Assembly (NCBI RefSeq): GCF_006345805.1
Contig: NW_021832546.1
Coordinates: 1 to 60,547 of the forward strand
Length of the DNA: 60,547 nucleotides
Source: Octopus sinensis
Lineage: Eukaryota
Direction of reading: 5' to 3'
Position 1 is the first letter of the stretch, and every line of letters starts with the position of its first letter. Both the position numbers and the translations under genes were made by a program. Of this stretch, positions 2,952 through 54,017 are shown piece by piece. The notes under the pieces were generated by a model, which saw only the letters and a program-made list of their open reading frames with translations, searched no databases and was not told the origin of the DNA.

Positions 2952-3237
2952 GGAATTATACGTATATATACATTTATGAAGAGAGACAAAGTGAAGGAGA
3001 GAAAATTATAACAGACAGTATTTTCGTCATTGTATGCTACAATTACAAACAGCTGCTTTGTTTTGTTTTTGGGTTTTTTTGTCAACACTCTCTTTTCATT
3101 GGTCAAAAAATTTTCTTTTATTTTTGTTCTTTTCTTTTGCTTTTTTATTGTTTGTAAAATTTCTTTGACTTTAACGTCTGTTAAACTCTTCCAAACTTAC
3201 TTTGATTCGTATAATGTTGTAAATGAATTTCTTTCCT

Positions 3238-3458
3238 GCCCACAAGGGGTTAAACATAGAGGGGACAAACAAGGACAGACAGACGTATTAAGTTGATTAT
3301 ATCGACCCCAGTGCGGAACTGGTACTTATTTAATCGAACCCGAAAGGATGAAAGGCAAAGTCGACCTCGGCGGAATTTGAACTCAGAACGTAGCGGCAGA
3401 CAAAGTACTGCTAAGTATTTTGCCTGGCGTGCTAACGTTTCTGCCAGCTCGCCGCCTT
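3238..3458 (-). mobile_element. tRNA-derived SINE, family B
   Basis: Head ggcggcgagctggcagaaacgttagc...gagttcaaattcc; central gcctttcatcctttcgggttcgat resembling the Deu/Nin-type SINE domain. Confidence 0.9.
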
Positions 3459-3727
3459 CAAACAATAATAATATTATATATTCACATATTTCATATATTT
3501 CGGCGCAGCGAGCCACCTTTCTTGTGGAACTAAATTTTGTTCAAATTACTGTCTACTGTTTTCAAAAGACGATAATGTAGTTTGTCTTCTATGCACATAG
3601 TCCGATAAAAGAACGGAATAGACATAGATTTGAACACTTGTGATTAGGAGTCGGTTCGCTCAGAGACAATCCGGAGTTACATGCAACAGCAGCAAATAAC
3701 GCATGCGCAAACATATTATAAGATTGC

Positions 3728-13209: not shown

Positions 13210-13307
13210 ATATATATGTATACATACATATGTATGTATGTATATATATATATATATATATACATACATATGTATGTATGTATGCATGTATATGTATGTA
13301 CAGATAT

Positions 13308-13359
<52 letters not shown>

Positions 13360-13376
13360 CATGTATATGTATGTAC

Positions 13377-13415
<39 letters not shown>

Positions 13416-14018
13416 AATGTATGTATATGTATGTATGTATATGTATGTACTAATATTGTATATATATATATATGTAAGTATGTATGTATATGCGAGTACT
13501 TATATATGTATATGTATATATGTTGTATATATTATATATTATATTTATATATATATTTTTATATAATACTTGCATATACATATTTAATTTTATGCACACA
13601 TATTTATATTATATATATATATATATAATATATATAATATAATATATATATATACGTGTGTGTGTGGTGCATAAATATAAATATGTGTAAGCGAGTAGTA
13701 TATATAATATAATATAATAGATATATATATATATATATTATATATATATATATATATACGCATACATACCTTTAGTGACTATTGCCCACCCATGAACGCT
13801 CACACGCACTCATACATACTCACATACTCACTTACACACACAGGGATGAGTGTGAGACTTGTATGTGTGTATGTATGTATGACTGTTCTTCTTGCCAATA
13901 CACACACATGCATACATACATACATACATACATACACACATGCATACATACATACATACATGCATACATGCATACATGCATACATACATACATACATACA
14001 TGCATACATGCATACATG

Positions 14019-14050
<32 letters not shown>

Positions 14051-14635
14051 CATGCATGCATACATACATACATACAAACATACATACATACGTACGTACG
14101 TACATACATACATACATACATACAAACATACATACATACATACATACATGCATGCATACATACATACATACATACAAATATACATTCATACATACATACA
14201 TACATACGTACGTACGTACATACAACATACAACATACATACATACATACATACATACAAACATACATACATACATACATACATACATACGTACGTACGTA
14301 CGTACGTACATACATACATACATACATACATACATACGTACTACCTACATACATACATACATACATACAAACATACCATTACATAATACTACATACATAC
14401 ATACATACATACAGAACATACATAACACACACATATATACATACATACATACATACATACATACATACATACATACATACGTACGTACGTACGTACATAC
14501 ATACATACATACATACATTAATGTATACAAGTTCATTTAGGGACATTAAGAAGATTCATATACGTGGTGGTGTGGTGTTGTTGGTGTGTGTTGTGTGCGT
14601 GCATATATGTATGCATATATACATGTATACATGTA

Positions 14636-14745: not shown

Positions 14746-15432
14746 TAAAAACCACAAAACGAATATTTCTTTTGAAGGCATTTGAAATGGCGAACAGGTT
14801 GAACCTGTTTTTTGTTTTTCTTTTCTTTATTTTCTCTTCGTCGTCTTCTTCTTTCTTTGAGACAGACATAAAAATATATAAAATAACACAAAAAAAGAAT
14901 CGAATGACAAAATTAAATCTATTGAAAATACATTTTTTAGTCCATGTAGCTTTTTATTCATGATTTCCCATAGAATTTTCTTTTTTTTTTTTTTTTCATC
15001 TTAGTTATGATGAATTACATAAACCTTATTTGTTTCTTATTTCTTATTTTCTTTTTTTTTCCTTCTTTCTTTTCTTCGTTTATTTATTTGTTTATTTTCT
15101 CACTGAAGCAAATCACGTGTTTGAACATCTGAAAGTCCGGGAACGCTTTATATGGTTTGTCTTGCTTGATGAGTTGAACGAAAACTTTCTTCATGAGATC
15201 TTCTGAGATGAAACTAAGGTGGTCTGCATGAGTCATGGGGGTTTCTTAGCCTCCTTTTCTGTCCTGACCCGGCCAAACAAATCACTACTGACAACTGTTG
15301 ATAGTATTCTATACTGGTCTGTCTGCCTTCCTTTACCGCCTTCCACCACCCCAACAATAACAACAACAACAACCTGTCAAAAATATTCGCTACGAACCGT
15401 CGAATAAAAGAAGCTTCTACGTGATCGTTCTA

Positions 15433-15830
15433 TACTCTTTTACTTGTTTCAGTCATTTGACTGCGGCCATGCTGAAGCACCGCCTTTAATCGAGCAAATC
15501 GACCCCGGGACTTATTCTTTGTAAGCCCAGTACTTATTCTATCCGTCTCTTTTGCTGAACCGTTAAGTGACGGGGATATAAACACACCAGCATCGATTGT
15601 CAAGCGATGTTGGGGGGGACAAACACACTCACACAAACACACACACACACACACAAATATATATATACGACGGGCTTCTTTCAGTTTCCGTCTACCAAAT
15701 CCACTCACAAGGCTTTGGTCGGCCCGAGGCTATAGCAGAAGACACTTGCCCAAGGTGCCACGCAGTGGGACTGAACCCAGAACCATGTGGTTGGTAAACA
15801 AGCTACTTACCACACAGCCACTCCTGCGCC
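15433..15830 (-). mobile_element. Full-length family-A SINE
   Basis: Complete from head to the gaaacaagtaaaagag tail. Confidence 0.92.
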
Positions 15831-16240
15831 TAGAAATAGCAAAGAAATCCTCCTTCAAACATACGTTACAGAATAACATTAAAATAAATGTAACGAAATG
15901 CGTTAGATAACGCAGTTTTAAGTACACTAAGGTCAATTTTTAAGAGAGGGCTCACCATGATATAAACATCTTCGAGCGTAGATCTGTCTGAATCGGAACA
16001 GACCTAGGGCGAAACAGTAACTTGATAGGCAATATACTTGCAATTATATACACTACATGCATTCTGTCACGGTAATCGATCCGGCTGCTTGATCTTAAAT
16101 GTGGATGAGAGACCTGGCATCGTTGTGGTTTTCATCAACGTTTACAATTATCTTTAACGAAGTTTTGTTGATGTAATTTTTGACGCTGAATCCGAATTTG
16201 CTATTCATTTATTCTAGAAAAATTTTGCGAAAATGTTTAT

Positions 16241-20651: not shown

Positions 20652-21986
20652 CGTTTCCGCATAGTCACTTCTGCTAAGAGCCTCATTGTTATACAAGGCA
20701 ATCTTGTGTTTAGAATGTTCCTATTGGCGGATAGAGACCCTTTTTTACTATTCCAGCTTTTTGCTATTCCACTGATCCCAAATCTTGGATAATTGGATTC
20801 TATGTGGTTGTAGTAAAACGTTTTCTTTAGCATTTGGGAAGAGTCGTACAACTGAGAAGAGATGCCTAATGTAACATCAAGAATGTTTACAATTTCGGTA
20901 TTTTAGTGGGTATGTCATCAATGCGTTCGTAGATAGTTGATGGCATGGATGTGGTACTGATGAGAGAACAATAATTCTTGAAATATATATGAGGGTGCGA
21001 AGCGAACTTCTTAACAACACAGCCACGCTTGTTCCAGTTTTAACCCATTAACTGCCAAATTTTTTATTCGCATTATTTAGCTTTGCCAGGTGTCTTAGGA
21101 GTTTAAATAATATATAGTATTTAAATTTTCTTCGTATGTGAATTATTTTGGAAATTATGATAAATTTTTCGAAAAGTCCCACAGGGGCATCACTGAAAAA
21201 GAACGTATTTATCCTTTTCTATTCAACTGCAATAACAAACATTTTAGTTGTTTTTTTATCTATAGTATCAAATTCGAGTGTATGATGGGTAATGCAAACA
21301 AAAAAAAAGCATTTTCAAAACAGACAATATTTTTGTAGTTCAAAAATTGCGATTCATGACATAAAATTCCTCTAGAATTAGCCAGAGCTTATAATGACAA
21401 ACTTTAACTACTAAACACATCCCTGCAAATGCAATATACATAAGCAATTCACTTTCAATACAACGAACAACCAACCGACAATGAGAGCGTTTTTAGCAGA
21501 TCCCCAAAAGGGGCTTATGGCAGGCATTGATTAAGGATCAGCAAGAAATAATATCCGTGTATTCCCATGAAAACAAAAATTAAATGCATTTTTATTGATT
21601 GTTTCTTAAATTTCTTGGACTTGTTATATATTGCAAGAAAATAGGGGAATCCTGTTCAAAGTTTGAAAAATTTCGACAAAATAGGACAAAAATTGCAAGG
21701 TAGGTAATTCGAGTTGTTGATTTTAAGCAAGGTGATAATTGTTACCTCGCTATCAGGTGCCAATAACTGCCATGTATCCGGTTTTGTCAAGTGTCGTGAC
21801 ATTGCGTTCCTTGTCTAGTACACTCCTCTTAGCACCAAAACTAAATATAGCAATATAGGTAATTTTAACCCTTAGCATATCGCTGTTTACATTGCTTTTC
21901 TATCTCACCTGTGTATGAACAAATAAATACTAGTAATAAGCTTGGTTCGAATTACTTTAGCATCGTTCTCACTTGGATGACGATTT

Positions 21987-22750: not shown

Positions 22751-23351
22751 TGTGCGTGAGTGTAGTTTGAGATGGTTAAAGAAATTGATCCCAGTACTAA
22801 TTTGTTTTATTTTGTTTTGTTTTTTCTTCTTTGATTTTTTTTTTTTTGATTTTTTTAAAGTCTGAAACTTATTCTAGCGTTCTCTTGCGCGGAATCTTTG
22901 AGTTATGGGAATGTGAACAAACCAACAGCTGATGTAAAATTAAGTCAGCGTCGAATCAACGTCCGCGTCAACATGTCTCGTGTCCTGAGACGGATTTCTC
23001 TCTTTCATATGCGTTGACGCCAGGTTCAAAGATCTGGGAAGGAATAACAAAGCCTCCTGAAGTGTTACTTCCTACTGCGACAGTCTTGACTTCTTCCTCC
23101 CTTCACTTCACCAACAGTTTCGGAAGCTCTACTAAAGGACACACGCACCCACACTCGCACGCACACGCGTCTATCGAAATGTTAAACGTCGTAAACAGTG
23201 ACTTGGTAAAAGGGAAAAAGCTCAACCACAACCGTGAAGGGAACTTCATGGGAAAAAAGGTGGGATTACAAAGGAGTAATTCACTTTGAATTGTTACCAC
23301 CTAATGCAACAATCAATGCTCAATATATAATATAAATATATATAAATATAT

Positions 23352-23703
23352 CACTGTACATATCTCTATGAGAGATTTAGAAATTTAATATTTCTGATTT
23401 TGGTAATCAGTGACTAAACTTCACTGAATTTAGATATATACTTTTGCGAGTCGAGGCAGATATCAACGGCTGACGGGCGTCTGCTACTCTAGACCGATGA
23501 AGGACAATGATCCTGAAACATGCGTGTCTCTAGATGCAGGCCTGCCTGCTGGGGGGTGTTTGTCTCCCCTTCGTAAATGTATATAAGGACACGGGAAAAA
23601 TGTGTCAAAGCCATCAGGAGGCGTCGATGCTTCCTAGGGCTAAACAGCGGTGGTGTAACCCCCTACTGTCACGTTCACGTTAGATTGACAGTATACAACC
23701 ATT

Positions 23704-23705
<2 letters not shown>
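23352..23705 (+). mobile_element. ~360-nt retrozyme/Penelope-pLTR-like monomer containing a type I hammerhead
   Basis: Flanked by TA-rich tracts; related permuted pieces at 48366-48452 and 53738-53972. Confidence 0.7.
23488..23534 (+). ncRNA. Type I hammerhead ribozyme (U4C variant), predicted cleavage after C23528
   Basis: TCTAGA-CCGATGA-AGGA caatga TCCT-GAAA-CA tgcg TG-TC-TCTAGA; all three stems pair; stem I extends via ctgc/gcag. Confidence 0.75.
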
Positions 23706-23742
<37 letters not shown>

Positions 23743-23745
<3 letters not shown>

Positions 23746-35290: not shown

Positions 35291-35620
35291 AGCCCGACGG
35301 AACTCAGATTTGATCCAGCAGATTGTTAATAAAAGACATTTCTAATATTGATCTTCCTGTCCTTTTTGTACGCTTCTTTATTTAAACGGTAGAGCGTGAT
35401 TTAAAGAAACAATGGCTGTTATTTCTCACGAGCCAAATGACGATGTAGAGGTTCCTTAAAAGTACGTTCGATTAGTTCAGTTGTCATGAAAAGTGAAGAA
35501 TTGAACGCTTCGCTGCTTTCGCCTTCATTAACAAACGAGAGAAAGCGAAGCTACGGTTGGGAGTTACGGGCCAAGTAAAATGCTAACTGCTCAAGATATG
35601 ATACTAGTTATTATATAATA

Positions 35621-36856
35621 AGGGCGGCGAGCTTGGCAGAATCGTTAGCCCGCCAGGCGAAATGCTTAGCGGTATTTCGTCTGCCGCTACGTTCTGAGTT
35701 CAAATTCCGCCGAGGTCGACTTTGTCTTTCATCCTTTCGGGGTCGATAAATTAAGTACCAGTTACGCACTGGGGTCGATACAATCGACTTAATACCTATG
35801 TCTGTCCTTGTTTGTCCCCTCTGTGTTTAGCCCCTTGTGGGCAATAAAGAAATAGGTATTTCGTCTGCCGCTACGTTCTGAGTTCAAATTCCACCGAGGT
35901 CGACTTTGCCTTTCATCCTTTCGGGGTCGATAAATTAAGTACCAGTTACGCACTGGGGTCGATGTAATCGACTTAATCCGTTTGTCTGTCTTTGTTTGTC
36001 CCCTCTGTGTTTAGCCCCTAGTGGGTAATAAAGAAATAGGTATTTCGTCTGCCGCTACGTTCTGAGTTCAAATTCCGCCAAGGTCGACTTTGCCTTTCAT
36101 CCTTTCGGGGTCGATAAATTAAGTACCAGTTATGAACTGGGGTCGATGTAATCGACTTAATACCTATGTCTGTCCTTGTTTGTCCCCTCTGTGTTTAGCC
36201 CCTTGTGGGTAATAAAGAAATAGGTATTTCGTCTGCCGCTACGTTCTGAGTTCAAATTCCGCCGAGGTCGACTTTGCCTTTCACCCTTTCGGGGTCGATA
36301 AATTAAGTACCAGTTACGCACTGGGGTCGATGTAATCGACTTAATACCTATGTCTGTCTTTGTTTGTCCTCTCTGTGTTTAGCCCCTAGTGGGTAATAAA
36401 GAAATAGGTATTTCGTCTGCCGCTACGTTCTGAGTTCAAATTCCGCCGAGGTCGACTTTGCCTTTCATCCTTTCAGGGTCGATTAAATAAGTACCAGTTA
36501 CGCACTAGGGTCGATACATTTATGTGTTTACTCCGGTATATATATATATGTCTGTATATACATACATATTGAGTATCATCGGATAGTTGATGTTTTACTG
36601 ATTTAAGTATATTTCTCCATTCTCTAATTTTGTAGTATATACATACATATATATTCCTACATGCACACACAAACACACTCACACGAACACTCACACACAC
36701 GCGTACTCGCACACAAATGTATATATACATATATACACACACATATAAATATATACGCACAAATCTATTGATATTTATATACACAATTTACAATCCGTTT
36801 GTCTGTCCTTGTTTGTCCTCTCTGTGTTTAGCCCCTTGTGGGTAGTAAAGAAATAG
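35621..36856 (+). mobile_element. Family-B SINE tandem array: five 184-bp units, last one interrupted
   Basis: Unit starts (ggtatttcgtctg) at 35671, 35855, 36039, 36223, 36407; insertion at ~36516-36791; tail resumes ~36792. Confidence 0.93.
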
Positions 36857-37886
36857 ATATAATAATAGTTTTTCTCTTTTCTCAAATAGCAAGGATCGAA
36901 ACGTTAGACTCCACACACCCCACGTTAACTTAACATATCAAACTCTCTTATGAGCTTTCATATGCACAACTTTTTACTGACTCAGACTATTACCAGTTAC
37001 CTTGGATTCCCGATATGCAAACTTGTCGTAACTATTTATAGATACGGGGATAAATCGTCATTGGAGTCCTCTAAACCTGATGGCAGATTACACAATGAAA
37101 ACTTTATCGGGCTGATCGAAAATACCTTTATATTTAGATTAACACAACACACAAAATCTTTTAGAAGCTGAAATAAAAGAAATGCAACAGCACTTTCGAA
37201 ATATATTTGATTTTTGAAAAACAGAGGAGAAAAACACGATAAAATGGTGTATGCTAAAGTGAAAGACACACAATGGTAACTGCTGCTATCTAGGGGCGCC
37301 TACAAAATTCAAAATCTTGATTCTACTTCGATATATCATGAGCAAGACAGAAGAAACTTTTTTATAATCTCTCTAGGATAAAACAAAAACTTGCTTAGAT
37401 TACCAACCAAATTTTCTTGTTTATTTAAGATCGTAGGATATAATTTGAGGTAAAAAAAAAAGGTAGCTACTATTTCTAGCACATTAAGCAGCCACCTAGA
37501 TGGCACCGATGTTGGCCGTTCTCTTTATCTATTATCGCTCGCTCAGACTAATTTTTAATATTTGTCAGCAAATTGTTCTATTGAAGGATAATGATATAGA
37601 ACAAATTAATATTGTAGTTGCCACATGTTACCTTTACTAGATACAATGAACAAAACATCTGTCTTGCACAAACAGACTTTATCATATGTGTGCCCTATAT
37701 AGGCACATATATAAATATGTATATAAGAGTAAGTTGTGTATATAAATATTAATTGATTTGTGCGTATATATTTATATGTGTGTGTATATATGTATATATA
37801 CATTTGTGTGCGAGTACGCGTGTGTGGGAGTGTTCGTGTTCGTGTGTTTGTATGTGTATGTAGGTATATATATGTATGCATATACA

Positions 37887-48281: not shown

Positions 48282-48454
48282 TATATATCTATATATATAT
48301 CTATATATATATAATAATATATATATATATAATATATATATAATATATAATATATATTATATGGGACTGTCACATTAAGTTGATAGTATACAACTACTCT
48401 ATCGTACCAGACTTCATATATCTCTCTGAGATATTTAGAAATGTAATATTTCTA

Positions 48455-53540: not shown

Positions 53541-53737
53541 CTGGGCCATTGCGCCTCCACACTACATCTCTATATATATATATATATCACGAGATCACGA
53601 TCACGAGACCGACCAGACCATCAGATGTTGTTACACACCGCTGGTCACAATGCGTTCGCATTGTTTTAGCCTTCAAATGACTCCACCCCGCTGGCTAAGC
53701 GAGCAGGGCAATATATATATATATATATATATATATA

Positions 53738-53968
53738 ATGGTTGTATACTGTCAACTTACGTGACAGTAAGGGAATTACACCACTGCTGTTTAGCCCTAG
53801 GAAGCATCGACGCTTCCTGTCGGCTTCGACACACTTACTGCGTCGATGCTTCCTAGGGCTAAACAGCGGTGGTGTAATCCCTTACTATCATTTAAATTGA
53901 CAGTATACAACCATTCTATCGCCCCCCCGCCGTAAATATCTCTATGAGATATTTAGAAATTAAATATT

Positions 53969-53972
<4 letters not shown>
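53738..53972. mobile_element. Fold-back copy of the 23.5-kb retrozyme-like family spanning the monomer junction
   Basis: Arms 53738-53814 and 53840-53915, followed by sequence matching 23360-23396. Confidence 0.78.

Positions 53973-54017
<45 letters not shown>

Follow-up and report, generated by a model that had tools for sequence, protein, structure and literature searches.

A 364-nt hammerhead repeat of Octopus sinensis with insertion ends resembling those of Penelope-like elements, and an ORF1-only LINE derivative upstream of its ribozyme

We analysed a 364-nt hammerhead repeat, one copy of which lies in a 60,547-nt stretch of the Octopus sinensis genome (contig NW_021832546.1 of assembly GCF_006345805.1), below called the window. 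The repeat is a non-LTR retrozyme, and its insertion into TA-rich DNA was probably the work of a Penelope-like enzyme with reverse transcriptase and endonuclease activity, supplied in trans and using multimeric or circular RNA as template. Its copies have two fixed 3' ends, scattered 5' ends, head-to-head pairs combining both kinds of end, and target duplications. Together these form the 'tail' signature of Penelope, and thus a Penelope-like enzyme is the likely mover.

The region 23352-23705 comprises 354 bases and contains a single, nearly full-length copy of a dispersed repeat (Table 1), at the place where the sequence-only reading had reported it. The left flank (23323-23351) consists exclusively of A and T. 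A search of the octopus genome (2.72 Gb) with the repeat produced 106 matches from the best 40 scored of 2197 candidates, and the exact 3'-end motif had 3052 matches versus 13 for the reversed control. Thus the repeat is not a chance similarity. Related sequence is present in sequencing runs labelled with four organisms; none of the runs listed is recorded as RNA. The nearest named homologues of the mobile-element proteins in this genome come from Argonauta. Neither a reverse transcriptase (RT) frame inside the unit nor long flanks common to the copies were found.

Table 1. Features of the repeat and its copies in the window
Feature	Positions	Strand	Remarks
Retrozyme copy	23352..23704	+	353/364 nt of unit, truncated at the 5' side; stops at site 1 (..CAACCATTC), (TA)n after
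Tail segment with two short hairpins	23352..23398	+	site 2 (..TTTCTGA) at 23397-23398, read through into unit here
Type I hammerhead	23481..23539	+	internal loop in stem I; stem/loop III near-palindromic; cut predicted at 23528/23529
Hammerhead core CCGAUGA (U4C)	23494-23500	+	standard is CUGAUGA
Hammerhead stem II	23501-23514	+
Hammerhead GAAA	23515-23518	+
(TA)n tract at 3' junction of the 23352 copy	23706..23743	.	
84-nt 5'-truncated copy	48370..48453	+	more diverged, 81% identity; ends at site 2 within TA-rich DNA
Inverted arm of head-to-head insertion	53733..53844	-	covers unit 237-356; stops at site 1, (TA)n after
Forward arm, same head-to-head insertion	53840..53974	+	covers unit 270-364 and the tail; stops at site 2, (TA)n after

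The unit length was measured from cleavage site to cleavage site in the natural head-to-tail dimer L006, which consists of two full units and additional 47 nt; the unit has 364 nt (363 nt had been estimated) and 44% GC. A natural dimer is located at C11088:44744-45515. Such dimers, which the earlier reading had suggested looking for as tandem arrays in the genome, agree with its tandem multimer or circle as template. Among the matches listed, tandem hammerhead pairs are spaced by 361-366 nt, with one hammerhead per unit, also as proposed. In many copies the end of the unit joins its start via an 11-nt linker. The end-to-start read-through reported at 53899-53972 and 48380-48452 is real, but only the 58-nt tail is seen at these sites (53840-53974 and 48370-48453) and no full second unit; full dimers lie outside the window. 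The linker of about 18 nt is real as well, although it has 19 nt if measured from CAACCATTC to ATATCTCT, or 11 nt if counted to the true start at 23352. The DNA alone fits a circle and an uncleaved linear multimer equally as forms of the template.

Other interspersed repeat families with many copies were observed in the window, for instance at 1399-1697, 3227-3481, 15428-15838 and 35596-36868. One of these families is present as a 184-nt tandem array at approximately 35.6-36.5 kb. There also are long inverted repeats at 2681-2951 (93% over 271 nt) and 13264-14526 (degenerate, over 1.3 kb).

The ends of the repeat were mapped in 80 loci. L001-L060 came from genome searches and were chosen for length or presence of the ribozyme; L069-L088 were selected by hand from 3'-end motif matches, partly as visible pairs, and the sample is not random. 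The 3' end falls at site 1 in 55 of the 112 distinct arms and at site 2, located 58 nt beyond site 1, in 51; the remaining 6 arms end elsewhere. Listings of exact motif matches contain the same two stops into TA-rich DNA. The 5' ends of the 112 arms are scattered across the entire unit. The sequence-only reading had described a circularly permuted monomer and named fixed termini in other copies as evidence to the contrary. Random permutation is indeed ruled out, as 106/112 arms stop at two fixed 3' sites; the variation that it had noticed is confined to the 5' ends. The 23352 copy is a 5'-truncated product of reverse transcription that stops at site 1. The link to retrozyme and Penelope architecture made in that reading holds. 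The U4C core, the head-to-head insertion at 53733-53974 and the targeting element described below had escaped it.

Neither site 1 nor site 2 coincides with the ribozyme cut, and termini at the cut were rejected as an explanation: no class of 3' ends is located there, and two of the 112 5' ends are within 5 nt of it, a count biased by the loci that had been chosen for their ribozyme. The predicted cut is crossed by 72 arms. As the RNA was copied through the ribozyme site, the template would have been uncut or re-ligated. Arms longer than 364 nt are frequent (34), and one reaches 771 nt.

Thirty-five head-to-head pairs were found. In 27 of them one arm ends at site 1 and the other at site 2, two pairs have both ends at site 2, two have both at site 1, and four contain an unclassed end. 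The two pairs with both ends at site 1 are one duplicated hairpin. Thus mixed pairs constitute 27/31 classable ones, or 26/29 if the duplicated locus L055/L056 is counted once (p 1.5e-5); in L001-L060 alone, that is, without the hand-picked loci, 18 of 21 head-to-head pairs are mixed. The flanks have 87% A+T, and (TA)4 occurs in 50/125 of them. Unique duplications of 10-14 bp surround 14/38 inverted insertions. For single insertions, duplications of at least 8 bp were observed in 5/35 cases, the remainder being situated in TA tracts or lacking any duplication. A near-perfect hairpin at L061:4792-4979, duplicated in L062, has the end of a Penelope pseudo-LTR (pLTR) joined to a 24-nt retrozyme end in a TA tract.

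The predicted cut after C23528 in our model agrees with the position given by the earlier reading. No hammerhead was reported by Rfam over the whole window or over 23300-23720, where only simple-repeat miRNA-like or chance matches were seen. In a hand-picked set of 28 variants, double changes were observed in 11/17 pairs, with 60 cells compared to 21.7 in shuffled sets (0/500), and in slid controls the paired fraction drops to 23-44%. Since kin sequences can beat shuffles, more weight should be given to the slid control and to the many stem types. Pair 10.1-11.1 is open in 16/28 variants. Almost every family has a palindromic loop III, and the computed energy of the loop III self-duplex in the 23352 copy is -12.5 kcal/mol; such palindromes have been associated with dimeric cleavage (PMC4209133). 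The active fold of the isolated motif is 3.9 kcal/mol above the minimum, and for the circular monomer the predicted folding energy is -131.6 kcal/mol (z -7.7 versus 100 shuffles). With the palindromic loop III and the weak core, cutting would take place only in dimers or with a protein bound.

Of the first 100 of 525 core matches, 89 have CCGA, 6 have CTGA and 5 have CCAA, which is the balance expected under CpG decay of a C4 master. In a midpoint-rooted tree of 84 segments from ribozyme to site 1, with distant families left out, one starred branch separates 62 CCGA and 3 CTGA rows from 19 CTGA rows; the U4C core occurs in the young clade, and the canonical core in older clades. In these sequences, the non-standard U4C core is fixed in the young clade. 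The U4C change reduces activity in vitro, and a natural viroid U4C variant is active enough in vivo (PMC3088659). Eight of nine Xenopus retrozyme dimers failed to cleave in vitro (10.64898/2026.07.22.740005). As the stems covary but the core is non-standard in the young clade, self-cleavage remains a prediction.

One possibility is that the ribozyme of the young clade is dead and the repeat spreads as an uncleaved linear multimer transcript, with no circular RNA. Both the prevalence of U4C and the lack of a 5'-end pile-up at the cut fit this explanation, and ribozyme mutants of the Anolis Penelope-like element (PLE) are described as still capable of insertion (PMC11167929). On the other hand, the stems and loop III palindromes stay compensated in U4C subfamilies too, and the viroid variant mentioned above retains sufficient activity. 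Thus we lean against a dead ribozyme, while regarding it as a serious possibility. It would alter the form of the RNA and leave the route of mobilisation as it is.

A relaxed scan produced further hammerhead-like cores in the window at 20957, 29580 and 33597, which may be due to chance. Distant repeat families with hammerheads and the same order of motifs were observed in L149, L150, L156, L211, L148, L079:2100-2600, L096 and L006:2350-2800; they have no BLAST match to the 364-nt unit, and some have the U3-A8 core.

The preferred explanation, mobilisation by a Penelope-like enzyme, can be described as follows. The enzyme would nick both target strands some 10-14 bp apart. Each target 3' end would then prime copying of the sense RNA, one at site 1 and the other at site 2, reverse transcription would pass the ribozyme site uninterrupted, and the two cDNAs, one from each site, would join in the middle of the insertion. 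Known Penelope insertions combine an inverted 5' copy with a one-sided tail and duplications of 8-10 bp (PMC3846280, PMC8557442). The Anolis enzyme cuts both strands of AT-rich DNA, starts at two internal RNA sites and uses an uncleaved RNA template (PMC11167929). A point against the preferred explanation is that Arkhipova 2013 (PMC3846280) observed no cross-mobilisation between its two PLE types. The inverted arm could also arise by self-priming on an antisense transcript rather than by priming from both target strands, as was put forward for head-to-head PLE structures in the same paper, and junction overlaps of few bases, such as 53840-53844 in the pair at 53733-53974, are consistent with that. 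However, the arms end at specific and different RNA sites with a direct duplication around them, and the Anolis protein extends both target strands (PMC11167929), making self-priming improbable.

In several units outside the window, an insert of 1.6-1.7 kb precedes the ribozyme. The insert encodes a zinc-knuckle protein (weak Pfam match) similar to ORF1 of a two-ORF LINE (33% identity, E 1e-40). In that LINE, ORF2 is a 1145-aa frame with domains APE-RT-zf-RVT downstream of ORF1; the order of domains presumably places it in the L1/Tx1 group, the homologues carrying no clade names. No ORF2 was found within full inserts. The insert thus looks HAL1-like, as ORF2 is lacking, its ORF1 is homologous to that of a two-ORF LINE, and duplications are present. 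A protein search with the insert ORF1 gave no match with E <= 0.001 among 2994 candidates. Its Atlas neighbours are mollusc CCHC clusters (0.91-0.92) and a ZCCHC3-like one (0.89), and can be considered only as a lead.

The preferred landing site of the insert is just upstream of the hammerhead in retrozyme copies. The exact 3' motif of the insert has 70 genome matches, 69 of them distinct, and in 43/69 a full hammerhead core begins 23-38 nt past the motif. Two more are followed by a broken core, seven belong to head-to-tail arrays at the target, and the remaining 17 are other copies, three of them still within retrozyme sequence. Among controls, a ribozyme adjoins 1/30 ends of sister ORF1-only elements and 0/28 ends of autonomous two-ORF relatives. 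Among full-length inserts, 25 different duplications (8-17 bp) were counted, every one of which matches the host copy concerned. If a core follows, it lies 14-32 nt beyond the junction, and the orientation is that of the ribozyme wherever a ribozyme follows. The hosts belong to both major clades and to distant families, including ones with the U3-A8 core. In off-target copies the first few bases of the duplication are those also found at the retrozyme junction, which may hint at read-through priming. Insert loci in many retrozyme subfamilies, including arrays and Penelope-style composites, were recorded at G000:C1:64961500-64966500 (L089), L063-L065, L069 and L090-L159.

Some composites have been copied in the Penelope style. 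In the head-to-head pair L119 both arms carry the end of the insert, and one arm stops at site 1, the other at site 2. After insertion, the ORF1-only element would travel as cargo of the retrozyme. It could be suggested that the element is not targeted at all, and one or few chance insertions were amplified as such cargo: some composites have one common junction at several loci, others are inverted or truncated in the PLE manner (L119, L099), and 17 of the 69 copies are not beside a ribozyme core. Still, the 25 duplications specific to host copies, the diversity of hosts and the seven copies in arrays at the target make this explanation a doubtful one.

The abundant two-ORF relative was rejected as the direct helper of the insert, as it ends in (ATT)n and was never (0/28) found beside a ribozyme. 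No two-ORF helper with the 3' end of the insert was found among the ends of two-ORF relatives and sister ORF1-only elements. The two-ORF LINE (L234-L267) has 29,775 candidates ending in (ATT)n tracts. Sister ORF1-only lineages (L190-L219) have related 3' ends, and several of them are followed by other common downstream sequences, pointing to other targets. L232-L233 (G000:C10:63.595-63.611 Mb) hold a cluster of LINEs and ORF1-only elements of the insert's group that are nested, broken and in a single orientation.

Like HAL1 half-L1 elements (PMC5753468), the insert is an ORF1-only derivative of a two-ORF LINE, and it resembles target-specific LINEs of the Tx1 clade (PMC4640811, PMC8869645) in that a repeated target is entered in a fixed orientation, with duplications and formation of arrays. 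It differs from both in that it targets the position immediately before the hammerhead in diverged retrozyme families, and in that the composites are then copied via another, Penelope-type route. LINEs targeting other transposons are known, for instance Tx1L, which inserts into Tx1D. We found no LINE derivative aimed at a ribozyme in titles and abstracts of the literature.

Search for a Penelope-like partner revealed an abundant young family (L160-L189; 20,635 candidates, frames up to 854 aa), for which the Pfam search gave no match. Its members, e.g. L166, have two 3' stops into (TA)n, separated by about 150 nt, and their own pLTR, different from the unit, with a minimal hammerhead within. 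In 30 loci of this one family and fragments of others, no autonomous PLE sharing the sequence of the unit was found, apart from inserted retrozyme copies. Two frames were considered as partners and rejected: that beside L055/L056 is a separate insertion with its own pLTR, and the RT beside L082 was inserted separately, into a TA tract. It is very unlikely that the repeat is a mere pseudo-LTR of an autonomous PLE, with the copies being its short 5'-truncated insertions and the dimers partial tandems: although PLEs have exactly this insertion signature, Xenopus retrozymes are similar to pLTRs (10.64898/2026.07.22.740005), and a 61-codon open frame begins in the ribozyme core of the 23352 subfamily like the ORF of the Anolis element, shared continuations of 99 exact tail matches re-enter the unit, with no RT frame reached by any of them, arms longer than the unit run back into the unit's own end, and the pLTR of the PLE that was found is different and contains a minimal ribozyme.

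The classification as a retrozyme probably moved by a PLE rests on several features. One hammerhead per unit, head-to-tail units within 150-450 nt, GC under 45-50%, duplications of more than 4 bp, no LTR structure and no encoded RT are those of retrozymes. Two internal 3' ends, a tail on one arm, an inverted 5' copy and an AT-rich target are those of PLE-mobilised sequences. The RT and GIY-YIG frame between pLTRs that defines autonomous Penelope-like elements is absent.

Animal non-LTR retrozymes (Cervera and de la Pena 2020, PMC7229834) are similar in the type I hammerhead per unit, tandem copies, size (364 nt in octopus, 350-390 in mussel; 44% GC), duplications of more than 4 bp, and a highly paired predicted circle. 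However, the octopus copies are mostly dispersed, truncated or head-to-head rather than arrayed, and have the U4C core. Penelope-type copying was proposed there, and the two 3' start sites mapped here are direct evidence. PLEs, namely Poseidon of Anolis (PMC11167929), Adineta Penelope (PMC3846280) and Naiad/Chlamys (PMC8557442), are similar in two internal 3' ends, the one-arm tail, the inverted 5' copy, AT or (TA)n targets, duplications of about 10 bp, and a ribozyme away from the ends. Unlike them, the octopus repeat has no RT or endonuclease frame, its tail has 58 nt compared to 30-40 in PLEs, and its ribozyme has full stems I-III, whereas the PLE form is minimal. Vertebrate retrozymes described as PLE derivatives (10.64898/2026.07.22.740005) belong to the same class and have the same proposed partner. 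Homology to pLTRs was found there, while here the ends are mapped and no homologous PLE was found; neither a mapping of ends nor sampling of molluscs is described in the part of that preprint available to us.

The class itself, animal non-LTR retrozymes, is already known, and Penelope derivation has been argued in the same preprint (10.64898/2026.07.22.740005). In titles and abstracts (Repbase, supplements and subscription papers may hold the family) we found no cephalopod retrozyme, no mapping of retrozyme ends with a rule of one arm per site, and no successful clade with fixed U4C.

Combining both parts of the analysis, we tentatively suggest a three-tier chain. A PLE enzyme would copy the ribozyme circle from two coordinated starts; an ORF1-only LINE would find the spot upstream of the hammerhead in diverged families via read-through RNA pairing with the retrozyme, and would then become cargo of a foreign class, as part of a 2-kb protein-coding ribozyme RNA.

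Movement of retrozymes by Penelope-like elements has hitherto been proposed from co-occurrence and pLTR similarity, and the insertion footprints described here are a direct sign of it. The rule of one arm per start site tests the model of a dimer and two-strand priming with a 364-nt RNA. The thriving U4C clade raises the question of whether cleavage is required at all. The insert is a natural case of a retroelement that targets another one and then adopts the mobilisation route of its target.
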